The notes under the pieces are model-generated. The model did not search any database and was not told the DNA's origin. It saw nothing but the letters and a program-made list of their open reading frames with translations. Shown here piece by piece: positions 2,959 through 38,203 of a stretch of 38,358 nt of DNA (within the stretch, counting starts at the first letter, position 1; the number at the start of each line of letters is the position of its first letter). The stretch is from a virus (taxonomy: Duplodnaviria > Heunggongvirae > Uroviricota > Caudoviricetes). The stretch lies in IMG/VR virus record IMGVR_UViG_3300045988_093140, one strand, 5' to 3'. A program made the translations under genes and the position numbers.

Positions 2959-5516
2959 CGTCCACCTCCGGAGAACAGACCACCATCGCGCATCTGCCCG
3001 GTCACAACATCCATTGCCGCCTTACGGGCTACGTCATAAACAGCCTTCAGTGCCTGTGGCCCTATCTGACCGTTCGTGCCGTCGTTGTTAATCACCACAT
3101 GGTTATTCTGCTCAAACGTCCCGGACGCCTGCGACCGGCTGTCTGCCATGCTGCCCGGTGTACCGACATAACCGCCGGTGGCATAGCCGCGCATCAGCCG
3201 GTAGAGATTCCCCACGCCAATCCGGCTGGTTGCCTCCTTCGTGAAGACAAACTCACCACGGTGAACAATCCCCGCTGGCTCATATTTGCCGCCGGTTCCC
3301 GTAAATCCCCCGGTCGCAAAATGGAATTTCGCCGCAGCGGCCTGAATGGCTGTACCACCTGACGCTGATGCTCCACCACTGGCAGCACCGCCAATGGCGC
3401 TGCCGATACTCCCGACAATCCCCACCATTGCCTGCTTAAGCAGAATTTCTGTCATCATGGACAGCACGGAACGGGTGAAGCTGCGCCAGTTCTGTTCACT
3501 GCCGGTCAGCATCGCCGCCATATTCTGTGCAATACCATCAAAGGTCTGCGTGGCAGCACTTTTAACCTGCGACATACTGTCCGTGGCGCTCTCTTCCCAC
3601 TCACTCCAGCCGGACTTCAGGCCTGCCATCCAGCTCCCGCGAAGCTGGTCTTCAGCCGCCCAGGTCTTTTTCTGCTCTGACATGACGTTATTCAGCGCCA
3701 GCGGATTATCGCCATACTGTTCCTTCAGACGCTGTTCCGTGGCTTCCCGCGCTGCCTGCCGGTCAGTCAGCCCCCGGCTTTTCGCATCAATGGCGGCCCG
3801 TTTTGCCCGTTGCTGCTGTGCGAATTTATCCGCCTGCTGCGCCAGCGCATTCAGGTGCTCCTGATACGTGACCTTATCGCCAAGTGCAGCCAGCTGGCGC
3901 TTGTACTCCAGCGTCTCGTCTTTATGCGCCAGCAGGGATTTCTCCTGTGCAGACAGCTGGCGACGTTGCGCCGCCTCCTCCAGTACCGCGAACTGATTCT
4001 CCGCCTTCCACAAATCCCGGCGCTGCTGGCTGATTTTCTCATTCGCTCCGGCATGCTTCTCCAGCGTCCGGAGTTCTGCCTGAAGCGTCAGCAGGGCAGC
4101 ATGAGCACTGTCTTCCTGACGATCGCCCGCAGACACCTTCACGCCGGACTGCTTCGGCTTTTTCAGCGTAGCTTCATAATCCTTTTTCGCTGCCGCCATC
4201 AGCGTGTTGTAATCTGCCTGCAGGATTTTCCCGTCTTTCAGTGCCTTATTCAGTTCTTCCTGACGGGCGGTATATTTCTCCAGCGGCGTTTGCAGGCGTT
4301 CGTAAGCCTTCTGCGCCTCTTCGGTATATTTCAGCCGTGACGCTTCGGTATCGCTCTGCTGCTGCGCATTTTTGTCCTGTTGACTCTGCTGCTCAGCCTT
4401 CTTTCGGGCGGCTTCAAGCGCAAGACGGGCCTTTTCACGATCATCCCAGTAACGCGCCCGCGCTTCATCGTTAACAAAATAATCATCCTTGCGCAGATTC
4501 CAGATGTCGTCTGCTTTCTTAAACGCAGCCTCTGCCTTAATCAGCATCTCCTGAGCGGTATCAGGACGACCAATATCCAGCACCGCATCCCACATGGATT
4601 TGAATGCCCGTGCTGTCCTGTCTGCCCAGGTCTCCAGCGTGCCCATGTTCTCTTTCAGGCGGCGGGTCTGGTCATCAAACCCTTTCGTTGCGGCCTCGTT
4701 CGCCGCCTGCAATGCCCCGGCTTCATCGCCGGAACGCTGCAACTGAGCAACATACGCAATCTGCTCCGCCGTCACGTTATGGAACTGGCGTGCCATCGCC
4801 GTCAGCCCCGACGTCGGGTCTGTGGTCAGCTTCCCGAAGGCTTCAGCGACCTTGTCCACCTCCACGCCGGATGCAGAGGAGAAACGCGCCACACTCTGGC
4901 TGATGGACGCAATCTGAGCCTCACCGCTTACCCCCGCCTTAACCAGTGCGCTGAGTGACTCGCTGGTCTGGTTAAACGTCAGCCCTGCCGCCTGCCCGGC
5001 TCTGGACAGGACCAGCATGCGATCTGCCGTCAGTCCCGCCTGATTGCCGGAAAGGACCAGCGTTTTGTTGAAATCGGACAGGGTTGAGTTGCCCTGATAC
5101 CAGGCATACGCCAGCGCACCGGTCGCCACCGCCAGCGAGGTGGCCCCCACCATCGGCAGGGTGATCGCACCGGCAAGCCCCCTGAACATGGGGATCATCC
5201 CGCCGAAGGAGTCCTTAACCTGACCACCCTGTTGCAGCAGGATCAGCCACGGACTTTGCCCGCCTGCAAGCTGCGTGGCCACGTCGGTGAACTGTGCAGG
5301 CAGCATACGCATGGCGGCTTTATACTGCCCGACGGAAATCCCCGCTTTCTGTGCAGCCAGCGCCTGTCGGCTCAGCGACTGTTCAACGACTGCCGCTGTT
5401 TTTTTCGCATCACTTTCCGTACCGGAAAAATGACGCCTGACTCTGGCCATCTGCTCGTCAAATCTGGCCGCATCCAGACTCAAATCAACGACCAGATCGC
5501 CTACCGGTTCAGCCAT
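2955..5516 (-). CDS. H: Tail tape-measure protein H
   Basis: 853 aa (lambda gpH length), long Ala/Gln-rich coiled-coil core, position between T and M. Confidence 0.95.
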   Translation of the reverse strand: MAEPVGDLVVDLSLDAARFDEQMARVRRHFSGTESDAKKTAAVVEQSLSRQALAAQKAGISVGQYKAAMRMLPAQFTDVATQLAGGQSPWLILLQQGGQVKDSFGGMIPMFRGLAGAITLPMVGATSLAVATGALAYAWYQGNSTLSDFNKTLVLSGNQAGLTADRMLVLSRAGQAAGLTFNQTSESLSALVKAGVSGEAQIASISQSVARFSSASGVEVDKVAEAFGKLTTDPTSGLTAMARQFHNVTAEQIAYVAQLQRSGDEAGALQAANEAATKGFDDQTRRLKENMGTLETWADRTARAFKSMWDAVLDIGRPDTAQEMLIKAEAAFKKADDIWNLRKDDYFVNDEARARYWDDREKARLALEAARKKAEQQSQQDKNAQQQSDTEASRLKYTEEAQKAYERLQTPLEKYTARQEELNKALKDGKILQADYNTLMAAAKKDYEATLKKPKQSGVKVSAGDRQEDSAHAALLTLQAELRTLEKHAGANEKISQQRRDLWKAENQFAVLEEAAQRRQLSAQEKSLLAHKDETLEYKRQLAALGDKVTYQEHLNALAQQADKFAQQQRAKRAAIDAKSRGLTDRQAAREATEQRLKEQYGDNPLALNNVMSEQKKTWAAEDQLRGSWMAGLKSGWSEWEESATDSMSQVKSAATQTFDGIAQNMAAMLTGSEQNWRSFTRSVLSMMTEILLKQAMVGIVGSIGSAIGGAASGGASASGGTAIQAAAAKFHFATGGFTGTGGKYEPAGIVHRGEFVFTKEATSRIGVGNLYRLMRGYATGGYVGTPGSMADSRSQASGTFEQNNHVVINNDGTNGQIGPQALKAVYDVARKAAMDVVTGQMRDGGLFSGGGR

Positions 5517-16236: not shown

Positions 16237-16362
16237 GATACAGCGCATGATGTGTCAGGCTTGAATACCTTTATCCGTTAAAAGGGATATCAGTTAAGTT
16301 ATCCCGTGCAGGGTATAAGCCATTATCAAAGCCACTCAGTAGCGAATGGCTTTTGTAATGGA

Positions 16363-16812
16363 CTATTTAATTAGTGATGCTGCGTATTCGATTAGATATA
16401 ACTTAGGTGCCAGCCAAATTTTTAACCATGTCATATTGGCTACTACAGAAATAATAAAACTGAACCATAGAATAAAAACTGCTACTAATGGTAAGACAAA
16501 ACCACTTAACCTACCGTCACTTTCCCAAATCATAGTCGGTTTGTATTTAGGCTGTCCATTATCGCATGAGCGTCCTTCATTATCGAACTTACCAATTTCA
16601 ACTTTTTTGCACTGTTTCTTCATAAACCAAATAACCAGCGGAATTGTTGAAATGGCTATTAATGTTTTAATCAGGCTATCAACCATATTCCATACCAGCA
16701 ACTGATGAACAACATCCGGAATTTGAGCCTGACTGAATACAATGGCGGAATCAATTCCATCGCTGGCCTTCTTCAATAAATCAACAAGAATTTTATTTGC
16801 TTCTTCTTGCAT
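16363..16812 (-). CDS. Hypothetical small membrane protein, two predicted TM helices, in AT-rich cassette
   Basis: 149 aa ORF with ATG at 16812 and AGGA 8 nt upstream; hydrophobic stretches LIKTLIAISTIPLVIWFM and GFVLPLVAVFILWFSFIISVVA; low GC. Confidence 0.7.
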   Translation of the reverse strand: MQEEANKILVDLLKKASDGIDSAIVFSQAQIPDVVHQLLVWNMVDSLIKTLIAISTIPLVIWFMKKQCKKVEIGKFDNEGRSCDNGQPKYKPTMIWESDGRLSGFVLPLVAVFILWFSFIISVVANMTWLKIWLAPKLYLIEYAASLIK

Positions 16813-16937
16813 GTTTATATCCTGTAAGTTGTAAGTCTGTTCGAAAAAAAAACAAACAACTACGAGAGACAGAAAAAATATCTCAGGCTCTCTTTCTATA
16901 AGCTTTTAGTTGAGGATGTTCTGCAAAACAAAACTGG

Positions 16938-17798
16938 TTAGTTATGTAACTGCTTCCGGAATACAACAGCCGACGTGCTACAACGTAAAATTCGCTTGAT
17001 TGTGGCAGTTGAGGAAACAGACTTGCATTTCTCAACATCATCAATAATGACCACATCCGGTACAGGAATGACGCGGGTATGCAATGTTTTTGCACTAATA
17101 ACATCACAGCCATTCAGTGGTCGAATATCTGCATCTTCAGGCACTACCAGAAGCACACGTTTTTCCGGTGCAGAAAAGCCAGCAGCAAGAGTGCGTGACA
17201 ATAAAGTCATTCCGCTGCGTGGCTTCATACAAATTTCAGAAATATGATTCTTTTCGTCCAAATGATGCTGGACATCATTTTTATCATCATTCAACAACTC
17301 TGCTGTTAATACAATCCCTGCTGTCTCAGATTTCCAGGAAATGCTGATATCCTGATCATCTGCATCAACATCATATTTCATCGAGTAAGGACTAAAGCTA
17401 CGTCCAACGAACGCATCATTTACCAGTACACGCCCACCCTGTCTGACCTGAAAGTCAACGCGCCCTGAAAGCTGATTTGCTGTTACAAGCAATGCCTTTT
17501 TTCTTTTTGTTTTATTGCTCATTGCCACCAACTGTTCAGCCATCTCTCTTGTCACACTACCAGAAACTCTTTCTTGAATTTTCACAGAAAATTTTCTGGA
17601 TGTAGTAGCATCGACATTAAAAAATCTGGATGTCATCAGGCAGTTATTAACAATTGGCATCAGCTCACTTACGATTGTAAAAAATTCCCGGTAAAGCTCA
17701 TTTTGCTTTTCAACACACAGCTTTCCACAATCGTCCAGCTTACGCTCAAGAGCACTTAACCTTTCCATTATTGAATTAATTTTTTGCAACTCTTTCAT
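16938..17798 (-). CDS. Hypothetical cytoplasmic protein, 287 aa, N-terminal coiled coil, in AT-rich cassette
   Basis: ATG at 17798 preceded by AGGAGG (MKELQKINSIMERLSALERKLDD...); the track ORF extends further upstream only because there is no in-frame stop; no family recognised. Confidence 0.7.
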   Translation of the reverse strand: MKELQKINSIMERLSALERKLDDCGKLCVEKQNELYREFFTIVSELMPIVNNCLMTSRFFNVDATTSRKFSVKIQERVSGSVTREMAEQLVAMSNKTKRKKALLVTANQLSGRVDFQVRQGGRVLVNDAFVGRSFSPYSMKYDVDADDQDISISWKSETAGIVLTAELLNDDKNDVQHHLDEKNHISEICMKPRSGMTLLSRTLAAGFSAPEKRVLLVVPEDADIRPLNGCDVISAKTLHTRVIPVPDVVIIDDVEKCKSVSSTATIKRILRCSTSAVVFRKQLHN

Positions 17799-17821
17799 CA
17801 AAACCTCCTGACAAAGATACC

Positions 17822-17839
17822 GTGCGACCACGGTCGCAC
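17822..17839. repeat. sopC-like 18-bp palindrome, copy 2 (extends to 20 bp, 17821-17840), 22 bp upstream of the cassette start codon
   Basis: cGTGCGACCACGGTCGCACg. Confidence 0.6.
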
Positions 17840-17962
17840 GCTCCTGAATACATGCCCTGTTTCTTCCACCCTCGCACAGGACTGGCGAACATGAGGGACA
17901 AACCCGCGAATCAATAGCGCGGTAAAAACCCGGTGTGCATCGTTTTTGATTATTCCCGCACA

Positions 17963-18032
17963 CTCGCGCAGAAGGAGTTCCCCGTCGGGCTACGGTCATA
18001 GTTAATGCGGGAATACGGCGACGATGCAGCGC
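17963..18032. repeat. 68-bp direct repeat, right copy
   Basis: ctcgcgcagaaggagttccccgtcgggctacggtcatagttaatgcgggaatacggcgacgatgcagcgc. Confidence 0.9.
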
Positions 18033-18042
18033 GGAATTTAGC

Positions 18043-18060
18043 GTGCGACCACGGTCGCAC
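18043..18060. repeat. sopC-like 18-bp palindrome, copy 3
   Basis: GTGCGACCACGGTCGCAC. Confidence 0.6.
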
Positions 18061-18079
18061 ACGAGAAACAAAGAGATTT

Positions 18080-18391
18080 TTATGCTACAGAGGAACAAGC
18101 TGGCGGGTAATTCAGCGTAGTGAATACCGGCATCTCCATCTTGTATGCGTAATGATACTCAGCAGTTGCTCCAGCAGACGCTTTCCAGCCAGGAAGCATC
18201 AAAATAGCATCAGCAGAACGAAGCATTGCAAAGCAAATATCCATGTATTCACGTTGCGTCAGGCCATTGGGTAAAGTGGCTGGATTCAGGACCGAATGAC
18301 CATGACGTGACAAACGCTCAGCCTCTTTATTAAAGGCGTCACGATTAAAATTCTCATATCCCGTCATTGGTCCGGCAATATAAATTTTCAT
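18080..18391 (-). CDS. Small conserved prophage protein, DUF4406 / nucleoside 2-deoxyribosyltransferase-like fold (recalled)
   Basis: 103 aa, MKIYIAGPMTGYENFNRDAF...; ATG confirmed at 18391. Confidence 0.6.
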   Translation of the reverse strand: MKIYIAGPMTGYENFNRDAFNKEAERLSRHGHSVLNPATLPNGLTQREYMDICFAMLRSADAILMLPGWKASAGATAEYHYAYKMEMPVFTTLNYPPACSSVA

Positions 18392-18432: not shown

Positions 18433-18894
18433 TTAATTCAGGCATTGCGTCCTGATGTACTCCTGCAAATATCCAACCTGTTTCGTCACTGTGACGATTC
18501 GCTCTCTGAGGATGAAATAATCCCGTTCAGCGGAGTCAGTAAGTCGGGGGCCGGTAGCATCGCCCAGGCCGCCGGTGATGGTCGTTCCGTTCGCGGGACA
18601 TCTGGCGTTGAGGTGCAGCCCACACTTGCCAGTGCGAACACAACGCTGCAAATCATCAAGCTGCTTTTTGGCATCAGCTAAGTCCTTCGTGTATTTGGCA
18701 TCCAGAGCCGCTACATCACGCTGGCGGATCTGCATGTCTTTGATGGTAGCGTTCGCCAGCTTCAACTCTCTGGCGTTTTTGTCGCGCTGCTCTTTATAGG
18801 AGATGGCGTTATCACGGTAATGATTAACAGCCAACGACAGGCAGACGATGATGCAGATAACCAGTGTGGAGATAATCGCGGTGACTCTGCTCAT
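18433..18894 (-). CDS. Rz: Spanin, inner-membrane subunit Rz
   Basis: From [49 protein letters not shown]... recognised as lambda Rz; N-terminal TM plus coiled coil. Confidence 0.9.
18486..18674 (-). CDS. Rz1: Spanin, outer-membrane lipoprotein subunit Rz1, embedded in the +1 frame of Rz (start codon uncertain)
   Basis: Lipobox ALASVGC followed by Pro-rich ...[24 protein letters not shown], resembling lambda Rz1; fully nested in Rz. Confidence 0.7.
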
Positions 18895-19391
18895 TACTGC
18901 CCCCACAAACAGACTTCACGCTCAATCTCACGGCGAGTCATCAGCCCTTTCCATTGCTTACCGCCAGCATATGTCCAGCGACGTAGTTGATCACATGCAC
19001 CTTTGATATCGCCCTGGTTGATTTTGCGAAGAAGCGTCGATGTTCTGAAATTGCCTGCACCCACGTTGTAAACGAACGAGTAAAGAGCACCACGCGTTGT
19101 TTCCGGTATATCGACTTTGATGTACGGGTTAATTTGTCTGGCGACAGTAGCAAGGTCTTTATTCAGGAGAGCTTTGCATTCAGCTTCGGTATACGTTTTA
19201 CCGAGCATAATGTCTTTTCCTGTATGCCCGTAACATACAGTCCATACACCAACGATGTCTTTGTAGGGGTTATGTTTCACACCTTCCAGACCATCGTTGC
19301 CGCTCGGACCAGAGATGAGCACAGATGCTATGGCAATAGCCCCGCCACCAATAGCAGTTGCGACAGCTTTGCGTAATGATGACTGCATCAT
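18894..19391 (-). CDS. R: SAR endolysin (lysozyme), phage 21 R-type
   Basis: 165 aa; N-terminal weakly hydrophobic Gly/Ala-rich signal-anchor-release segment [20 protein letters not shown] followed by lysozyme-like domain. Confidence 0.9.
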
Positions 19392-19660
19392 ATTTCCTTC
19401 GGTGCTCTCTTTCCCAATTCACCAATAACCATCGCCGTGGCGGAAATATTATTGGCATCAGTTTTATCCAATATGTCCTGCAATATCTTCGTGCGCTTCA
19501 TCTGCTCGCGTTTATTGAGCCGGTATGTAAGTACACCGAGGATAATGCTGAACGCGACACCGATAATGAAGCCCCAATCCTGCAATGACAGGCTGGCAAA
19601 GAACGCAGTAAGACCAGCACTACCATAAGGTGCGCTGCTGTATCGTTCATCCATCTTCAT
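19388..19660 (-). CDS. S: Holin (pinholin-like) with dual-start motif M-K-M
   Basis: 90 aa, two hydrophobic segments, charged C-terminus, overlaps the R start by 4 nt; ATG at 19660 and second ATG two codons in. Confidence 0.8.
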
Positions 19661-21728: not shown

Positions 21729-22040
21729 ATGTTTAACGTGATAACCCACCCTGCAGCACTGGATGAACTGCTTGAACTACCAGATGATTTGCGAGGTCGC
21801 ATGACCAGATTAATTGAGCGACTGGAGAAAGAAGGCAACAAACTGAAGATGCCTCATAGCCGTGTAATAGGTGGAGGGCTTTTTGAACTACGAGTAGGGG
21901 ATAAAAACATCGCAAGAACGCTGTACGCCTACGCGACTGGTAACGAAATTTATCTATTGCATGCATTTGTAAAAAAGACACAGAAAACACCGGTGAAGGC
22001 TATCGAAATCGCCAGAACTCGCCTGAAGGAGATGAACTGA
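21729..22040 (+). CDS. Type II toxin, RelE/ParE superfamily (HigB-like / Gp49-like), toxin-first operon
   Basis: 103 aa; 4-nt ATGA overlap with the downstream HTH gene; upstream palindrome TCACTTTTTAGTGA. Confidence 0.7.
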   Translation: MFNVITHPAALDELLELPDDLRGRMTRLIERLEKEGNKLKMPHSRVIGGGLFELRVGDKNIARTLYAYATGNEIYLLHAFVKKTQKTPVKAIEIARTRLKEMN

Positions 22041-22327
22041 TGAAAGCGAAAGGCATCCCGTTTAACGAAGTAAAAGAAAAACTCCTCAACACTCCAGAAG
22101 CCGTCAAAGGATATGAAGAGGCCGACAAAGAGCTGGAGATGGTCGAAATGTTATACGAAATGAGGGAAAGAGCAGGTTTAACGAAATCAGCTCTGGCTGA
22201 ACGAATGGGGTTGCGCCCGTCAGCCATCAGCCGCCTGGAAAGCAATCCTTTAGGGGCAAGTATGAAAACTTTGGCTAAATATGCTCATGCCTGCGGCGCA
22301 ACCATCGATATTCGCGCTGTTTATTAA
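22040..22327 (+). CDS. HTH XRE-family antitoxin (HigA-like)
   Basis: 95 aa with HTH segment LTKSALAERMGLRPSAISRLE. Confidence 0.7.
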   Translation: MKAKGIPFNEVKEKLLNTPEAVKGYEEADKELEMVEMLYEMRERAGLTKSALAERMGLRPSAISRLESNPLGASMKTLAKYAHACGATIDIRAVY

Positions 22328-22369: not shown

Positions 22370-22573
22370 TCAATGATGTGAACGCTCAACAGCGATAGTT
22401 TTCTGACAATGCTGGGCAATCTCTCGCGACATGTTGATGAGTCGTGAAACCTCACCAATATGTAGGCTGGCTTCTGGAGAAGCCAGGGTGACGCTAACCA
22501 GATCCAGAACGGCGTCAATATCTCTTAAATTTGAATCGAGTTGTTCAAGAGTTGATACGGCTGCTTCAGACAT
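22370..22573 (-). CDS. Hypothetical small protein
   Basis: 67 aa ORF. Confidence 0.4.
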   Translation of the reverse strand: MSEAAVSTLEQLDSNLRDIDAVLDLVSVTLASPEASLHIGEVSRLINMSREIAQHCQKTIAVERSHH

Positions 22574-22655
22574 TAAATCTCATACCATTTAACTAAAAAA
22601 GGTTATTTATACTGTATAAAATTACAGGGTAAAACTCAAACTTTACGGTCAATTT

Positions 22656-25296: not shown

Positions 25297-25895
25297 TACG
25301 ATTCTCCTTGCCCTTTTACAAGACGGGAGAAAATTGCGGATACATATTTAGCCTGATGAATAGCATCAGCCAGGGCATTGTGTCGTTCGCCATCAAATGG
25401 CATATCTTTTTTAGGATTAAAACCAATAAACTGACCAAGATTAACGATTGTTCGAACATCCTGATCATTAAAATATTCCCACGGACAGGCTAAGCCAACG
25501 CGCTCATAAGCACCGCGTAAAATTACATTATCGAACGTTGCTCCATTTCCCCATACTTTCAATTTTTTTAAATTACATGCATGGCAAGTAATAAAGTGTG
25601 ATAATTCAAAAAGTGCATCCTTAATATCAAGGGCATCATTAGTACAAATTGCGGCTCTGGCTTCCTTGCTCTGTTTCAACCACCATAAAATGGTATCACC
25701 ATCGGCGACACCACCATTCAACATCGAGCTTCTGAGATTCACTGGCACATAAAAAGTAGGACCTAATTCCTCATTTTCTGGAGAAAAAAACACTGCCCCG
25801 ATAGAAACAATTGGAGCACATGTGTTAGTACCCATTGTTTCAAGGTCAATCATTACATCAGACCGTTTCCTGTCGTAAATAATCTGATTAGTCAC
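25296..25895 (-). CDS. DEDD-family 3'-5' exonuclease (GTG start, or ATG at 25853)
   Basis: IDLETMG N-terminal exonuclease motif and later H..ALAD motif; GAGGAG RBS before the GTG. Confidence 0.65.
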   Translation of the reverse strand: MTNQIIYDRKRSDVMIDLETMGTNTCAPIVSIGAVFFSPENEELGPTFYVPVNLRSSMLNGGVADGDTILWWLKQSKEARAAICTNDALDIKDALFELSHFITCHACNLKKLKVWGNGATFDNVILRGAYERVGLACPWEYFNDQDVRTIVNLGQFIGFNPKKDMPFDGERHNALADAIHQAKYVSAIFSRLVKGQGES

Positions 25896-25918
25896 GAATA
25901 ATTCTCCTCAACGTTTAT

Positions 25919-26122
25919 CTATACCCAAATTTTCTGTTGATATGTTCTGGATGGTTTTGGCGTTCTTTCTGATTCAGGTAAATGAACATAAACGCAATAT
26001 CCATCACCTAAAAAATCAGAACGAACAACCAGAACTTTCTTACCACGCCGCCGATAAGTATCTGAAAGACGCTCTGCTTCATCATGCGTCATCGGCCCCT
26101 GCTTAAATGGCGTTATTTTCAT
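25919..26122 (-). CDS. Hypothetical small protein (start uncertain)
   Basis: ORF-track start at 26146 falls inside the sopC-like palindrome; first ATG at 26122. Confidence 0.4.
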   Translation of the reverse strand: MKITPFKQGPMTHDEAERLSDTYRRRGKKVLVVRSDFLGDGYCVYVHLPESERTPKPSRTYQQKIWV

Positions 26123-27368: not shown

Positions 27369-27965
27369 ATGAAAACACGAGGCGAACGACTGAAAGCACG
27401 CCGTTTAGAGATGAAGCTGACGTTGCGAGAAGTTGCTGAGGCTGTCGATATCTCTATTGCAGGCGTCCAAAACTTAGAACGTGGCGACGTAATGCCGTCA
27501 CTGGAGATAGGTATTGCCCTGGCTAAATGCTTACGCAAGCCAGTGCATTGGGTGCTGTATGGGACAGAATATGACCCTGATCGCATTCCTGTTATTGGCA
27601 CAACTGAAAGTGGACCTGATGAAGAGTGGAAGCCAGGACAGGTTCCAAATACTGAGCGATTCCTGCCATTCATCAGCCAGCGCAATACTGTTTATGCGTT
27701 AACTATCAGCAATCTTACGCAGGGAAACTATCAGCCAGGCGATTTTCTCCTGGTCGATTCTGCGCTGGAACTGGTCCCCGGCGAGGATGTTCTGGTTCGT
27801 GATACTGCAGGAAATATCACTATCCAGCGCCTGGCCCGTTTTGATGATGAAAATTACTATCTGGATGGAACAAACTCACAACGCGCCATCTTCAGGAAAA
27901 GCGATCTTGAATTTGTTCACCAAATAGTCGGAACGATCAAATCATTCATGGTTGAGGGTAGATGA
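27369..27965 (+). CDS. Prophage repressor, CI/LexA-like (HTH plus S24 peptidase domain)
   Basis: 198 aa; N-terminal HTH LTLREVAEAVDISIAGVQNLERG, C-terminal S24-like region. Confidence 0.8.
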   Translation: MKTRGERLKARRLEMKLTLREVAEAVDISIAGVQNLERGDVMPSLEIGIALAKCLRKPVHWVLYGTEYDPDRIPVIGTTESGPDEEWKPGQVPNTERFLPFISQRNTVYALTISNLTQGNYQPGDFLLVDSALELVPGEDVLVRDTAGNITIQRLARFDDENYYLDGTNSQRAIFRKSDLEFVHQIVGTIKSFMVEGR

Positions 27966-32596: not shown

Positions 32597-32992
32597 ATGG
32601 CTGTTCAATCATACAAATACGAATCCCCTTTGGATAAGGGATACATTCGTATCAAGTTAAGTCGTTCTCAGCATAAGGCTATTTTTAAGGTAAGGAAAAT
32701 TCGCATATTGGATGCGTATGCGTATTACTACAACGGTGAAAATGTTGTTGTTGAACACTTTCTTGCACGATGGTTTGTAGCTCTGATTTTTGTCCCTCTC
32801 CTGTTAATTGGTACTTTTGTGGATGGTTTTCCTAGTACATGGCGGGAGATAAAGAAAGGCCTATTCCCGCGTAAGTACGGCAGATTTTCGCAAGATAGCT
32901 GGCGAGTTATACCTGGTAAACATTCTGTAGATGAGCAACCGATTGTTGATTACTGGTTGAAGTATATGGTTGATACTCATAAAGCCGACTAA
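32597..32992 (+). CDS. Hypothetical membrane protein
   Basis: Start at ATG 32597 (MAVQSYKYE...); hydrophobic segment WFVALIFVPLLLIGTFV. Confidence 0.5.
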   Translation: MAVQSYKYESPLDKGYIRIKLSRSQHKAIFKVRKIRILDAYAYYYNGENVVVEHFLARWFVALIFVPLLLIGTFVDGFPSTWREIKKGLFPRKYGRFSQDSWRVIPGKHSVDEQPIVDYWLKYMVDTHKAD

Positions 32993-33119
32993 GTGCGCGG
33001 CATATTAAATGTTTATATATTGTTAATTTTACTTCACATTAAGCACACACTGTATTGATATACTCATACAATATGAAGGCTAAATATGTATGTTTTGCTT
33101 TTAAGGTGATGGAGATTTT

Positions 33120-33476
33120 ATGAAAGTAATTAGCATAAAAATCATTTTGATTTTATCAATTATTGCTCTTGCTATTGTATTTTTCTGGCCTGAATCTAAT
33201 AAAGGCCCAGAGTGCTATAAGGTTAGTGATGAACAGGCAAGAGAATTTGTAAAAAATGACTTTTTGAAAAAAATAACGCGTTGGAATAACGATGTACAAC
33301 TTCTCGGTACAGAAGCCCCAAAAATTACGTGGGAAAAGATTGAAAGAAGCTTAACAGATGTTAAAGATGAAAAAACGCTTCTCGTCCCATTTAAAGCCGA
33401 AGGCCCGGAAGGTAAGAGAATGTATTATGGAATGTACCATTGCAAGGAAGGTTATGTTGAATATGCAAATGATTGA
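33120..33476 (+). CDS. cmi: Colicin M immunity protein
   Basis: 118 aa, N-terminal TM anchor, recognised as Cmi from the translation; convergent with cma. Confidence 0.85.
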   Translation: MKVISIKIILILSIIALAIVFFWPESNKGPECYKVSDEQAREFVKNDFLKKITRWNNDVQLLGTEAPKITWEKIERSLTDVKDEKTLLVPFKAEGPEGKRMYYGMYHCKEGYVEYAND

Positions 33477-33498
33477 TACATCGGTATAAAGACTGCAT

Positions 33499-33526
33499 AA
33501 AAAAGGCCGGAATCCCGGCCTTTTTA
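33499..33526. terminator. Bidirectional rho-independent terminator between convergent cmi and cma
   Basis: AAAAAA-GGCCGG-aatc-CCGGCC-TTTTT. Confidence 0.65.
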
Positions 33527-34342
33527 TTATCGCTTGCCACTTTCTTTAATGTGAATTTCGCCAGGAAGTAGTATCTGATACTCTTTACCAGAGAACATCG
33601 CCCCGAGCCTTGTAAGAGACTCTCCGATTACGCCACGATGAGTGCTGGCATTGAAGTCATACTTGTCGTTATACGAGCGAACAACGCCATTATAGGTCCA
33701 TGAGCCATTAGCGGAGACAGTTAAAGTACCTTCTGTTTTCAGCGTGATATTACCAAGATATGCGCCGGTAATAACATTATAATCGCCAGTGGCGTGTGTG
33801 AATTTTGTAGAAATAGGGAATGTGCCTACTACACCAGATTTTACAATATCTCTTATCTGATTAATTTTCATCGGAGAAATTTTGAGACCAATATTTGCGA
33901 TATTAACGCTTCGGTCTGCACCATTACCCCATAAATAGTGTGCAAGCGCCACAATTGGTGTTGTGACATTACCGCTCATTTGTTTCATATTCATTGAGCG
34001 ATAGTCATATTTATTTGGCGCAGGTTTAGCTAAGTGGTAGGCGTCATAAACACTTATTCCGCGGTGAAGGATAAGGTTTCTGTCAGCGTTACAGAAGTAG
34101 GCAATATTTGTTGACATAATTTGTAATGTCAGGGGATCGCTGGCACCGTGTTTTTTGATGTAGTCCTCAAGCTGAGTTAGAGCCTGAATACACATGTTTG
34201 GGCTCTGGAAAAAGCTGTAAACCACCTGGACTAAAAGGGGGCCAGAACCAGGCACGTGTGGTGCTGAGAGAGAAAATGCGCCATTACCATAACTCGGTAA
34301 GTTAGTTGATGGTGATGGAGCTGTCACAACGATAGTATCCAT
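33527..34342 (-). CDS. cma: Colicin M (lipid II-cleaving bacteriocin)
   Basis: 271 aa; recognised as colicin M along the whole length, including N-terminal TonB-box-like DTIVV and the C-terminal region with HATGDYNVITGAY. Confidence 0.85.
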   Translation of the reverse strand: MDTIVVTAPSPSTNLPSYGNGAFSLSAPHVPGSGPLLVQVVYSFFQSPNMCIQALTQLEDYIKKHGASDPLTLQIMSTNIAYFCNADRNLILHRGISVYDAYHLAKPAPNKYDYRSMNMKQMSGNVTTPIVALAHYLWGNGADRSVNIANIGLKISPMKINQIRDIVKSGVVGTFPISTKFTHATGDYNVITGAYLGNITLKTEGTLTVSANGSWTYNGVVRSYNDKYDFNASTHRGVIGESLTRLGAMFSGKEYQILLPGEIHIKESGKR

Positions 34343-34403
34343 ATCAAAAACCCTTATAAGTTAATGAAATAACAGACATACAGGTTTAATCGCTGCATAA
34401 ACA

Positions 34404-34419
34404 CTGTGTTTTTATACAG
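34404..34419. promoter_or_regulatory. LexA (SOS) box upstream of cma
   Basis: CTGTGTTTTTATACAG fits CTGT-N8-ACAG, 62-77 bp upstream of the cma start and overlapping a plausible promoter. Confidence 0.55.
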
Positions 34420-34554
34420 CAAAATCAGGATAGCCCGAGCCGCCCCATTAGTAAAGTAAAGTGTAAATAACATTTATATTTTAATGTAATAAAAATGCTA
34501 CGTTTTGTTGTATATTATTCTAATGGTAGTTCAGGCGGGGCCGACTTCGGTCGG

Positions 34555-34606
34555 GCCGGTTTCTCCGTTTACCGGTATTGCGAACCCTGCCTGGGCTATC
34601 ACCATA
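34555..34606 (+). repeat. c4-like repeat, copy 1, upstream of icd/ant (candidate antisense-RNA or target element)
   Basis: gccggtttctccgtttaccggtattgcgaaccctgcctgggctatcaccata, preceded by hairpin CCGAC-TTCG-GTCGG. Confidence 0.35.
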
Positions 34607-34867
34607 ATATCGTTTATCTTCTAATCATTTGTTTAAGCAAACTATAAAAACACCTATCCCCGTGACTGGTCACAGGGTAAAATGTCTTTGCAAATTATTG
34701 ACGTGTGCGTCGTTTTGACGGTAAAGTTATTCCGCTGCGGTAAATCCCGTAGCCGGGCGTAGGAACCCGAGTAAATGAAGCGCACAACACGCGCCAGCGT
34801 GTTTTTTTGTGTGTAAAATCTGCGTACACCAAATTTATGGTGGCTCAGATGGGGCAGCTTTTAGCTG

Positions 34868-34920
34868 GCCGGTTTCTTCGTTTACCGGTATTCCTACCCC
34901 CGTCTGGGCTACCGCCATAT
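34868..34920 (+). repeat. c4-like repeat, copy 2
   Basis: gccggtttcttcgtttaccggtattcctacccccgtctgggctaccgccatat; 5' 25 nt identical to copy 1 except one base. Confidence 0.35.
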
Positions 34921-35136: not shown

Positions 35137-35363
35137 ATCAGGTAAAAATGAACACTGTTGGCCTGCTGGAATCGTTGGATGAACGTCTGGCTCAGGTCTA
35201 TGCGCTCGTATCATCAGCCCATCGGACAGTATCCAGCTGTGAGGCGTCGATTTATCTATCAGAAGCCGGGAAGCTTCTTCAAATCGCGTGTGAGTTAACT
35301 CATGAAGCACAGGGGTATTCCGCGTCGCTCTCGTCGCAATTGCTGGGTAAGGAGGCTGAATGA
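35133..35363 (+). CDS. Hypothetical small protein in the icd/ant operon
   Basis: 76 aa, start and stop overlap neighbours. Confidence 0.5.
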   Translation: MNQVKMNTVGLLESLDERLAQVYALVSSAHRTVSSCEASIYLSEAGKLLQIACELTHEAQGYSASLSSQLLGKEAE

Positions 35364-36136
35364 GCGCGTTAGCAGTCTTTTCCTTTCAGGAAGAGCATCA
35401 GGTTCGTGTAGTGATGATTAACGGCGAACCGTGGTTTGTTGCATCTGATGTGTGTATGGCGGCGGGTATTGATTCTACGGCCACCAGAAAGTTGGATGAG
35501 GACGAAAAGGGTCTGCATTTAATGCAGACCCCTGGTGGATACCAGAATGTTTCAATCATCAACGAGTCAGGTCTATACACCCTGATCCTCCGCTGCCGTG
35601 ACGCTGTTAAACCGGGCACGATTGCATGGCGGTTTCGTAAATGGGTAACGAACGAGGTCCTGCCCTCTATTCGCAAGAATGGAGAGTACGTTTACGTCGA
35701 GCCTGAGCCAATGCGAGCAGCAGAGCCGTTGAACTGGAGGCAGAAGGAGTATCTGCGAGGGCTGATTAACGATATTGCACAAAGTTTTCAGTATCGAAAT
35801 GCCTGGATTAGCGGTGTATGGTTGGCTTTGCGTCGGGCGTGTCGTAATCCATCCCCGAACCCCATAACGGTTGATGATTTACCAGCAATTACGGCAGAAC
35901 TGCGCCGGATTTTAACGGCTGCTGAGTCGGCATTGGGGAACATGCGCACGTATGAACGAGAGTTGTTGCGTGATGTTGTTCGTGGGGGTAGGCGGAGTAT
36001 GTCGTGTGGTGATTTGCCCATCACCGATATTAACTCTGATCTGGAAAAGGCGTTACCCGCGCATTTTGAACTGGCAGTTCAAAAACTTGAGCAGTTATCC
36101 GCGCAGCTAAAGCCAGCAGAAATCACCAATAAATAG
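35360..36136 (+). CDS. Antirepressor, Bro-N/KilA-N domain
   Basis: 258 aa; N-terminal Bro-N-like FQEEHQVRVVMINGEPWFVASDVCMAAGI. Confidence 0.75.
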   Translation: MSALAVFSFQEEHQVRVVMINGEPWFVASDVCMAAGIDSTATRKLDEDEKGLHLMQTPGGYQNVSIINESGLYTLILRCRDAVKPGTIAWRFRKWVTNEVLPSIRKNGEYVYVEPEPMRAAEPLNWRQKEYLRGLINDIAQSFQYRNAWISGVWLALRRACRNPSPNPITVDDLPAITAELRRILTAAESALGNMRTYERELLRDVVRGGRRSMSCGDLPITDINSDLEKALPAHFELAVQKLEQLSAQLKPAEITNK

Positions 36137-36307: not shown

Positions 36308-38203
36308 TTATCCGAAATATGTCAGCCATGCTAACTGCATTGCTGACATAGGGCTGTTTGCACTGCCGGACCACGCATAATTCTGGCCATTATAATGAAA
36401 CTCAACAACGTATGAGCCATCACCAATATTTCTCACAGGCTTAAATACCGGCTTAGATACAGGTGAAGAAGGCGCTGGCGGTTGCTGTTCTTCTACGCTC
36501 TCTTCCTCTTCCTCTTCCTCTATCTCAATTTCGTCGTCATCCAGATCGTCATCCTCTGATAATTCATCCGTCTGTTCAGGTATTGCTTCCAGCTCTTCTT
36601 CGTCAGGCATAACGATTTCTGGAGTATCTATTTTCAGCTGCCATTGTCCATTTTCGCCAACAAATTGCCCCAGAGCATCAGCAGCAAATTCCAGGTATCG
36701 ACTAATCATTGTTGGGCTAAATTTGAATGCTCTTAGAGTGCTGTTCGTGATTTTTATAGAGGGGTCCTGTTCTACCAGCTGCTTAACTGTGTTATGCAGA
36801 CGAACCCCGGCATCTCCTCTGGCGAATCCAGGCATTTCGTCATCAAGCTGCTGCAATGCTTCCAGCCTGGTATTTTCGTTTCCAGTATTTGGCCTCCATG
36901 TCTTTGAGAAGTTGGCCAGCTTGAATTGTTTATAGTGTAATTGAGTGTTTTCATCGTCATGGCCTAAAATTTCCATAAAGAAAACATCTTCATCTACATT
37001 TTTCCAACGGGGATCTACGCGGAAAAACATTTCATACGCAATACGGGCATAAATAGCACGACTATCTTTATAAACACGGCGATTGTCATTGAAAAATGAT
37101 TTAACCCATGGATTAAAAGCCTTTGCTAATATGGCATTAATACGTCCGTTTTCAGACCGCGTGTCGTTATTTCCGTAACCCATAACGACTTCATCAAAAT
37201 CAGATGCTGCTGGGCATGAGCGAAGTACATTTATTAGATAAACAAACGTTTTTGCTTCGCATAATGTATATATTTTTCTGGTTACATCATCAGTAGTTCT
37301 TTTTTTCGCCTGACCTAAAAAATCAACGGTATACTTACCAGAGACAGTAAATGTACCTTGATACATAATCTCAATCATTCGTCTTCCTGATAATGCGGCA
37401 AGAGCAAATGCCAAAGGAGCCATACCTGAACGAGTGTTTAGATTATTTAATGTAGCAGGGCTATTTATAATATCGTAAATAGCTTGCATATAATTAGGGT
37501 AGTCAATGACTACTACGTTACGTTTCTTATTGTGTAGTACGTCCGCCCATCGTTGCTGGATAGATGCGCGTTCGGCAGGGCTTAGTTTGAGATGATAGAG
37601 AATCTCATGGTTAACCTTTAACTGATTCAACTCCTCAAGCAAGGCTGACCCTTGCTGTAGTAATTTATATAAATAATCGCGCTTATCTTTCCAATTATCG
37701 CCAGTTAAATCAGAAATGGCAAATTGCCATTCTTTATATTTATTTGATAACTTTATTAACTTATTATTATTTTTATTATCACCAATTCTGATATTAGATA
37801 AATCTTCGGACAGATGAATAATTAATTTTAATTTTGCCTGTAAAGATGACATTCTACGGCGAATATCGGCAGCAGGTAGAGAGAGCCATGACAATAGCTC
37901 CTCATTATATAAAGGATATTTTTCAGATAGTCGATGTATATTTTTTTCAAAACTATGATGAAGTTTATCATCAAACCGTTTTCTGGCCCTGCTCATATAG
38001 GAGTTGAATGTGTTGGCTGTAATTCTCTTTTCTAATCCTTTTCCCCTAAACTTTCGCTTATCATTAAATAATGTATTTTTAAATTTTAATGCAACGGCCT
38101 TTATTTTTTTTGTTTTCTCTCCTTGAGGACGGTCAGAGTTATCTATTGACTCAACATCGCTAACAAGTGAGTTTATTAATTCACCGATTTTTACTTTGCT
38201 CAT
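36308..38203 (-). CDS. telN: Protelomerase (telomere resolvase), N15 TelN-like
   Basis: 631 aa, recognised as TelN end to end (MSKVKIGELIN...RKFRGKGLEKRITANTFN...RVYKDSRAIYARIAYEMFF..., acidic C-terminal linker); AGGAGA RBS. Confidence 0.9.
   Translation of the reverse strand: MSKVKIGELINSLVSDVESIDNSDRPQGEKTKKIKAVALKFKNTLFNDKRKFRGKGLEKRITANTFNSYMSRARKRFDDKLHHSFEKNIHRLSEKYPLYNEELLSWLSLPAADIRRRMSSLQAKLKLIIHLSEDLSNIRIGDNKNNNKLIKLSNKYKEWQFAISDLTGDNWKDKRDYLYKLLQQGSALLEELNQLKVNHEILYHLKLSPAERASIQQRWADVLHNKKRNVVVIDYPNYMQAIYDIINSPATLNNLNTRSGMAPLAFALAALSGRRMIEIMYQGTFTVSGKYTVDFLGQAKKRTTDDVTRKIYTLCEAKTFVYLINVLRSCPAASDFDEVVMGYGNNDTRSENGRINAILAKAFNPWVKSFFNDNRRVYKDSRAIYARIAYEMFFRVDPRWKNVDEDVFFMEILGHDDENTQLHYKQFKLANFSKTWRPNTGNENTRLEALQQLDDEMPGFARGDAGVRLHNTVKQLVEQDPSIKITNSTLRAFKFSPTMISRYLEFAADALGQFVGENGQWQLKIDTPEIVMPDEEELEAIPEQTDELSEDDDLDDDEIEIEEEEEEESVEEQQPPAPSSPVSKPVFKPVRNIGDGSYVVEFHYNGQNYAWSGSANSPMSAMQLAWLTYFG

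Follow-up and report, generated by a model that had tools for sequence, protein, structure and literature searches.

A colicin M and immunity gene pair with its own LexA operator, carried as cargo by an N15-like phage-plasmid of Escherichia

The whole stretch of DNA analysed here, referred to as the window, is the 38,358-nt IMG/VR record IMGVR_UViG_3300045988_093140 (Caudoviricetes), and the subject of this study is the colicin M gene, cma, and the gene of its immunity protein, cmi, that it carries. The cma gene (33527-34342, minus strand) encodes a 271-aa colicin M of a divergent, phage-type allele recognised by its Pfam and PDB matches, and cmi (33120-33476, plus strand) lies downstream of it on the opposite strand and encodes 118 aa, the two genes being convergent and 50 nt apart. 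Both sit in a cargo cassette at 32985-34618, delimited by a break in backbone homology and by G+C content, which replaces a small moron of the sister phages. Homology of the backbone to the related phages YDC107_1 and PhiR46_1 ends at 32984 and restarts at 34618, and the cassette has a G+C content of 38.2%, compared with 45.9% and 49.9% in the 2-kb flanks, in agreement with the low-GC islet that a first-pass annotation, made from the letters alone, had described. The list of open reading frames (ORFs) contains no colicin-type lysis lipoprotein gene in the cassette, and cma stands alone there, as had been stated, without colicin B or a colicin lysis gene.

Protein searches identified the 271-aa ORF as colicin M over its full length, with Pfam Colicin_M (PF14859) matching residues 4-271 at 481.6 bits (cut-off 27; E 8e-145) and the crystallised colicin M (PDB 2xmx) matching it end to end, 1-271 (E 9e-174). 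Compared with the canonical copy of the ColBM plasmid pEC_B24, the protein carries 21 substitutions (92.3% aa identity), of which the translocation domain has five, the receptor domain nine and the catalytic domain seven. The first-pass annotation had read this ORF as full-length colicin M with a TonB-box-like DTIVV and had named low identity and loss of catalytic residues as grounds against it; the identity is 92.3%, all catalytic residues are kept, and the box is present as D2-T-I-V-V6, with T3 and V6 retained, where the canonical protein has E2-T-L-T-V6. The N-terminus is MDTIVVTAPSP and that of the canonical protein METLTVHAPSP; T3 and V6 hardly vary among the homologues, and DTIVV is found identically in the homologue of Enterobacter kobei. 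The inactivating TonB-box changes known for colicin M are L4P, L4N, V6E, V6G and V6R (PMC8469651), and none of them occurs in the protein of the window, where L4I is conservative and V6 is kept. The catalytic motif DxYD(x5)HR is complete, with NDKYDFNASTHR keeping D226, Y228, D229, H235 and R236, the residues whose alanine mutants are inactive (PMC8469651), and D226, D229 and R236 are invariant across 11 colicin M homologues. In addition, the FkpA-related prolines P107, P129, P176 and P260, which are needed for FkpA-dependent uptake or activity (PMC8469651, PMC3057819), are all retained, the sole proline lost being P94 (P94R), a position at which the P94A variant is active (PMC3057819).

Of the 816 positions of cma, 102 are different in the plasmid gene (87.5% identity), with a synonymous divergence (dS) of 0.62 and a ratio of nonsynonymous to synonymous divergence (dN/dS) of 0.064, while dS is saturated between the window and the cma of E. 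kobei. These values indicate that the phage cma is an old, separately evolving allele under purifying selection, and it was not captured recently from a ColBM plasmid and is not a relic, because dS is 0.62, dN/dS is 0.064 and the functional residues are intact. An inactive relic would require that D225N, beside the catalytic D226, and the altered TonB box had abolished killing; D225 is called conserved in a review (PMC8469651), and four of the first seven residues differ from canonical colicin M. However, asparagine is the majority residue at position 225, occurring in 7 of the 11 natural homologues while D226 is invariant; the N-terminus is that of E. kobei and holds no known inactivating change (PMC8469651). 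The low dN/dS over so large a dS, the activity of P94A (PMC3057819) and the presence of the identical protein on 61 contigs also speak against decay, which makes the loss of killing activity extremely improbable.

The 118-aa ORF was matched by the crystallised colicin M immunity protein Cmi (PDB 4aeq; E 1e-55) and by Pfam YebF at 32.4 bits, in line with its earlier reading as Cmi, and it shares 98 of 117 residues (84%) with canonical Cmi. The hydrophobic N-terminus, a membrane anchor, and both cysteines are kept in the pairwise alignment, and the gene has a dS of 0.71 and a dN/dS of 0.115 relative to the plasmid copy. Between the stop codons of the two genes lies a perfect 26-nt palindrome at 33500-33525, bordered by an A-run at one end and a T-run at the other, which is by its inverted repeat and its folding a bidirectional intrinsic terminator common to cmi and cma. 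It folds at -19.1 kcal/mol (z -4.0) on one strand and at -20.5 kcal/mol (z -3.3) on the other, none of 200 shuffles being as stable, and the shared terminator that had been proposed thus folds on both strands. A consensus promoter and terminator scan of the window picked up neither this terminator nor any cma promoter. Public annotation also misses the phage-borne immunity gene, since the exact Cmi protein is labelled 'hypothetical protein' or 'YebF family protein', and NCBI labels the toxin no more closely than 'lipid II-degrading bacteriocin', without the name colicin M.

Upstream of cma, CTGTGTTTTTATACAG was found at 34404-34419, 61 nt from the ATG, as the core of a LexA operator at 34402-34421 (minus strand; TGCTGTATAAAAACACAGTG on the cma strand). 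With a position weight matrix (PWM) of 23 E. coli LexA operators, this box scored 21.7 bits, the best in the window, followed by the box of an antC-like gene (19.6 bits) and a third-best site of 11.1 bits; it exceeds 14 of the 23 reference operators, whose median is 20.8 bits. The motif CTGT-N8-ACAG occurs three times in the window against 0.42 expected, and its third occurrence, at 3449 in the tail-gene arm, was rejected as a chance match, having a GC-rich spacer and falling outside the top 12 PWM hits. In the 700 nt before the cma ATG, the next-best LexA-like site reached 3.6 bits. An alignment of 15 copies of the cassette shows no change in the core, and the sole nearby single-nucleotide polymorphism (SNP), C to T at 34402, shifts the site toward the LexA consensus. 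A putative promoter at 34427-34455 (minus strand), derived from a relaxed scan and an alignment, comprises a -35 TTTACT (34455-34450), a 17-nt spacer and a -10 TATCCT (34432-34427), ending 5 nt before the 20-mer operator, and a ribosome-binding site AAGGG was read from the sequence at 34351-34355 (minus strand), the ATAAGG block being invariant in a four-way alignment of cma promoters.

Stand-alone relatives of cma were found by protein search in Salmonella enterica (P0002, locus L024 5384-7290; 86% aa identity) and Enterobacter kobei (P0004, locus L026 6001-7193; 75% aa identity). The LexA 20-mer starts at -79 relative to the ATG in the window, at -80 in Salmonella (24.9 bits) and at -78 in E. 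kobei (20.2 bits). The window and the Salmonella locus are homologous in DNA from cmi onwards, through cma and past the box as far as about 34438, and the sequence TTTACC-17-TATCTT upstream of the Salmonella cma aligns column by column with the window promoter, the two superimposing as a -35 of TTTAC(T/C), a 17-nt spacer, a -10 of TATC(C/T)T, 5 nt and the 20-mer. The LexA box claimed upstream of cma has an exact core, is the top PWM site of the 38 kb and is positionally conserved in relatives. The same box might instead serve a divergent plus-strand promoter for an extra C4-type antisense RNA gene at 34519-34606 that feeds the antirepressor and secondary-immunity circuit. It lies about 100 nt upstream of that gene on the plus strand, the RNA needs a promoter somewhere in 34420-34518, and a strong promoter is visible on neither strand. 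However, no C4 RNA was found in the Salmonella and E. kobei cma loci, where the same box stands at the same distance from the ATG; the box belongs to cma because it holds this position there. An immunity RNA should also be produced in the lysogen, where the operator is occupied by LexA, and the stretch homologous to the upstream region of the Salmonella cma includes the box, leaving service to the C4 RNA largely refuted and very improbable.

On the ColBM plasmid pEC_B24, an overlapping double LexA box was found only upstream of the colicin B gene cba, and no CTG-N10-CAG occurs in the 243-bp spacer between the colicin B immunity gene cbi and cma, classical cma being transcribed from the cba SOS promoter (PMC8469651). 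That colicin M is classically plasmid-borne with colicin B and has no lysis gene, as the first-pass annotation stated, agrees with the pEC_B24 sequence and with the same review. The resemblance of the window to the plasmid cma-cmi is limited to 33103-34376 (86.5% nucleotide identity), with the homology of cmi starting 17 nt before its ATG, and the regions upstream of both genes are unrelated to those of pColBM. The Salmonella pair lies directly after a tRNA-Pro (GGG), between it and prophage tail-fibre genes, and the E. kobei pair adjoins umuDC-like and tail-fibre genes, so that the association of cma with phage genes may be recurrent. Comparison of these loci suggests that a position beside phage genes and an SOS operator of its own are widespread and ancestral features of cma; the LexA box is probably the ancestral operator of cma, lost by the pColBM plasmids, and the autonomous promoter is probably ancestral too, while the ColBM read-through arrangement looks derived.

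The slot that the cassette occupies is a moron site, bounded on one side by the genes that follow repA and on the other by the secondary-immunity (antirepressor) operon. In YDC107_1 the slot holds a gp31-like gene of 74 aa (locus L001, 32705-32929), and in PhiR46_1 a 95-aa gene annotated 'Spackle exclusion protein' (locus L002, 3086-3373); the slot at 32985-34618 looks like a hot spot for defence and competition cargo. In a further locus (L007), whose Cmi variant is labelled Escherichia albertii, a near-identical cassette (32998-34618) lies between two copies of a backbone segment of about 330 bp and adjoins a Spackle-like gene, and this position between duplicated segments fits movement by recombination among related phages.

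The extra C4-type RNA gene (34519-34606, plus strand; Rfam RF01695, 77.5 bits) lies at the edge of the cassette. A second C4-type RNA gene was found at 34833-34919 (plus strand; 73.6 bits), and the two flank a c4-a1b1 target or isrK-like element at 34721-34807 (plus strand). Downstream of the C4 genes lies the antirepressor operon, which comprises a 54-aa ORF, a 76-aa ORF and then a Bro-N gene at 35360-36136. One C4 copy is present in the cma-free PhiR46_1, two in the locus L003 and three in L007, with the extra copy occurring only in cma-bearing relatives. The extra RNA is 91% identical to the C4 of PhiR46_1 and only 77% to the second copy of the window itself, and it occurs as three alleles, differing in loop regions, among cassettes that are otherwise 98.5-100% identical; it may confer a second immunity specificity. 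In a crude search for targets by complementarity, intramolecular stems dominated, and the loop of the second C4 RNA matched 34771-34780 perfectly, whereas that of the extra one would have a mismatch there. Spurious 'ash family protein' coding-sequence calls overlie the C4 RNAs in related records.

A second LexA operator (22610-22629, minus strand; 19.6 bits) is enclosed by a -35 element, TTGACC, and a -10 element, TATAAAT, and precedes an AntC-like antirepressor ORF (22370-22573, minus strand, 67 aa) that is the presumed SOS trigger of prophage induction. This ORF is 56% identical over 63 aa (E 9e-21) to an ORF between genes 47 and 48 of phage N15, and N15 carries CTGTGTTTATATACAG at the place syntenic to the operator; the N15 RefSeq record has no annotation for its AntC-homologous ORF. 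According to PMC4488713 and PMC3121763, which refer to Mardanov and Ravin (2007), the induction of N15 begins with AntC, an antirepressor under LexA control that acts on the CB repressor, and by analogy with N15 the 67-aa ORF would have the same function. The phage lysis cassette (18433-19660, minus strand) comprises a holin-like gene (19388-19660), an endolysin (18894-19391) and Rz (18433-18906), with an Rz1-like ORF embedded in Rz at 18486-18674 (minus strand) in the ORF list. Phage_lysozyme (E 1e-47) and Phage_lysis (Rz; E 1e-39) were matched in Pfam, and holin families stayed below their cut-offs. The element thus appears to be SOS-inducible through LexA, and it has a full lysis set.

From these features, a course of events can be proposed. 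In the lysogen, LexA on the operator just downstream of the cma -10 would keep the toxin off, and Cmi made from its own promoter would protect the periplasm. DNA damage would clear LexA from both operators at once; freed cma would let colicin M accumulate in the cytoplasm, while the freed AntC-like antirepressor would inactivate the CB repressor and start the lytic programme, in which Q-dependent late transcription would supply the holin, endolysin and Rz/Rz1. Lysis would then release colicin M together with the virions, and the released toxin would kill FhuA- and TonB-proficient neighbours without cmi, while newly lysogenised cells would become immune. A cell that derepresses cma would be expected also to switch to lysis because both operators are LexA-controlled and the lysis set is full, and the co-induction of cma with phage lysis is well supported at the sequence level. 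The proposal that SOS induction switches on both the toxin and the phage lysis, already made from the letters alone, is accordingly plausible, with two LexA boxes, an AntC homologue and an intact lysis cassette. Colicin M lacks a signal sequence, and no export route is known for it (PMC8469651, PMC5821083); colicin Ib, which is without a lysis gene, is released by prophage lysis in Salmonella (PMC7374059), and release by phage lysis ('piggybacking') has already been suggested for colicin M (PMC5821083). We infer, above all, the exit of the toxin through the lysis of this phage, as we infer LexA binding in vivo, the transcription start and the killing activity from the sequence.

We put the probability that the pair is SOS-switched cargo of an N15-like phage-plasmid, co-induced with lysis and with its toxin released together with the virions, at roughly 0.65. 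Several points weigh against it. The operators of the PWM were a background set from the literature and not retrieved records; the putative promoter is weak, matching 8 of 12 positions of the sigma-70 consensus, and was missed by the consensus scan, although it aligns in the Salmonella locus. A single LexA box stands at cma, where colicin operons typically have an overlapping pair; the phage copies vary too little (98.5-100% identity) for a test of box conservation within the lineage, and cma lies outside the late operon, its timing relative to lysis being assumed.

Alternatively, the module could be an ordinary host-benefit cargo to which the lysis link is incidental, with its main value for the lysogen in constitutive Cmi against the colicin M of the common ColBM plasmids and the toxin leaving by leakage or through lysis by other prophages, as is presumed of cma on plasmids. 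The upstream region of cmi is its own and distinct from that of the plasmid, the slot carries defence-type morons in sister phages, such as 'Spackle' in PhiR46_1, cma has its own promoter outside the late operon, and the canonical toxin gets out with no lysis function linked to its gene (PMC8469651); plasmids with colicin M are also frequent, with matches to the query in 486 of 5426 complete E. coli genomes. However, purifying selection on cma is at least as strong as on cmi (dN/dS 0.064 vs 0.115), the LexA operator is kept in all copies, and the resident phage-plasmid is itself SOS-inducible, making the co-occurrence of toxin and lysis hard to avoid. An incidental link to lysis is thus unlikely, and the co-induced release is the reading that we favour. 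Going further than that release, one SOS signal might deliver toxin, genome amplification and lysis as a weapon of the phage-plasmid, with Cma/Cmi as a distinct type of immunity to which ColBM plasmids give no cross-protection and the extra, allele-variable C4 RNA extending the secondary immunity to other N15-type phages; we regard this extension as doubtful. If true, the toxin would remove non-lysogenic competitors, infection would convert survivors to immunity, and the element would be a natural system answering how colicin M is released.

By gene content and DNA identity, the window covers the greater part of a linear plasmid-prophage of the N15 type from Escherichia, the phage-plasmid context claimed before resting on its protelomerase, RepA, CB and Q and on its N15-type relatives. 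A TelN/TelK-type protelomerase (36308-38203, minus strand, 631 aa) matched four TelK/ResT Pfam domains with E values of 1e-24 to 9e-50, and the window also encodes a 1331-aa RepA, a CB-type repressor, Cro, Q and lambda-like structural genes. It is 96-97% identical in DNA to YDC107_1 (Ravinvirus) and PhiR46_1 over about 80% of the 18 kb tested; with N15 the identity is 75-77%, in the regions for replication and immunity. Its right end falls within about 50 nt of the telL position of PhiR46_1. Related contigs stop about 4 kb past cma or continue as perfect palindromes, the pattern that assembly gives when reads pass round a hairpin telomere. The GenBank record of YDC107_1 (L001, CP025712.1, 27179-46701) shows a mirror-image duplication with inverted telN, Bro-N and repA copies, and the loci L004, L005 and L015 hold two inverted cma copies in a mirror duplication centred on the protelomerase and telomere region. 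This inverted duplication is an assembly fold-back around the hairpin telomere and not real gene content.

Several further features of the element were noted. The CB-type repressor (27369-27965, plus strand) has an HTH_3 match and a sub-threshold Peptidase_S24 match of 21.3 bits (cut-off 23.3), and RecA-stimulated self-cleavage of it may provide a second SOS input. Adjacent ORFs of 103 and 95 aa at 21729-22327 (plus strand), beside antC, stand where N15 has its genes 49/48, a RelE/ParE toxin and a transcriptional regulator by annotation, and they likely form a toxin-antitoxin stabilisation pair. Further low-GC stretches (0.37-0.45) at 16300-18100 and 25500-26000 might hold other cargo; the former, between the lysis cassette and the terminase region, contains ORFs of 386 aa (16938-18098, minus strand) and 149 aa (16363-16812, minus strand), for neither of which was a Pfam match found. 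The receptor of N15 is FhuA, and its Cor protein protects against colicin M (PMC3594210). The idea of a shared FhuA receptor was dropped, as the J protein of PhiR46_1 is only 30% identical to N15 J, with the C-terminal receptor-binding end unaligned and looking lambda-like, and the window contains only the N-terminal part of J. No homologues of cor, gene 22 or gene 23 were found in the window or in any fetched locus.

The arrangement was absent from collections of phages (50,697 records), plasmids (72,556) and complete E. coli genomes (5,426). A 32-mer spanning the LexA box had no match in IMG/VR or in the GTDB species representatives, and a protein-based scan of the latter gave none either. 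The exact 32-mer occurs in only 9 of the 18 fetched cma loci, being missing from the others because of the flanking C/T SNP at 34402. When 34343-34625 was compared with complete E. coli genomes and phages, only the C4 part matched, and the origin of the promoter segment was recognised only through homology to the Salmonella locus. In draft assemblies and metagenomes, however, at least 61 contigs carry the exact Cma protein and 67 the exact Cmi, and the same N15-like neighbourhood was seen at all 18 places inspected; GCA_013897735.1 and GCA_042176185.2 are two of the assemblies that contain the element. The NCBI and UniRef labels of the contigs with exact proteins are E. coli or Escherichia, with the close Cmi variant labelled E. 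albertii.

Reviews describe the colicin M of E. coli as plasmid-encoded, driven by the SOS promoter of colicin B, lacking a lysis protein and with an unknown release mechanism (PMC8469651, PMC5821083), and full-text literature searches returned no account of colicin M on a phage-plasmid, whether N15-like or of another type. Both proteins are known. The novelty lies in the replicon that carries them, in a cma promoter of its own under LexA control, in the linkage to SOS-inducible lysis genes and in the extra C4 RNA that comes with the cassette. The precedent of colicin Ib and the 'piggybacking' suggestion for colicin M already exist, and nothing here is biochemically unexpected. The find adds a bacteriocin to the known cargo of N15-type phage-plasmids, and it bears on the history of cma, in which the stand-alone, LexA-controlled gene beside phage genes looks ancestral and the ColBM arrangement derived. 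With toxin, immunity gene, LexA switch and SOS-inducible lysis set on one replicon, release by phage lysis becomes directly testable, and the element offers a clean natural system for the question of how colicin M leaves the cell.

Among known systems, N15, YDC107_1 and PhiR46_1 share with the window the protelomerase, RepA, CB/Cro/Q, a C4-type cA RNA with an antirepressor operon and a LexA-controlled antC, whereas YDC107_1 and PhiR46_1 have a gp31-like or 'Spackle' gene at the slot, one C4 RNA and no bacteriocin. The pColBM plasmids (cba-cbi-cma-cmi; pEC_B24 and pColBM-Cl139) have the same proteins, convergent layout, shared terminator, ribosome-binding site and catalytic motif as the window and likewise lack a lysis gene. 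However, they read through into cma from the cba SOS promoter, whereas the cma of the window has no cba/cbi upstream and has its own LexA operator and promoter, and they are conjugative IncF plasmids, whereas the replicon of the window is a linear plasmid-prophage. The cma-cmi pairs of Salmonella and E. kobei resemble that of the window in standing alone with a single strong LexA box about 79 nt upstream of the ATG, and in Salmonella also in a homologous promoter, but they are chromosomal, beside prophage tail-fibre genes, and not in an extrachromosomal N15-type phage.

Colicin Ib, an SOS-inducible group B colicin without a lysis gene, leaves the cell through the lysis of temperate phages, the mechanism proposed here for the window, but it is plasmid-borne with the phage acting in trans, whereas in the window a single replicon unites the toxin gene with those for immunity and lysis and has two LexA operators. 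The release of colicin Ib by prophage lysis in Salmonella was reportedly described by Nedialkova in 2016, and also by Spriewald in 2020 (PMC7374059). Shiga-toxin-converting lambdoid phages carry a toxin that has no secretion route, is made under SOS and is released by phage lysis, and in these respects they are like the system proposed for the window, with its phage-borne toxin. In contrast, stx belongs to the Q-dependent late operon, whereas cma would be governed by its own LexA-controlled promoter, lies in the plasmid-maintenance and immunity arm and targets bacteria.

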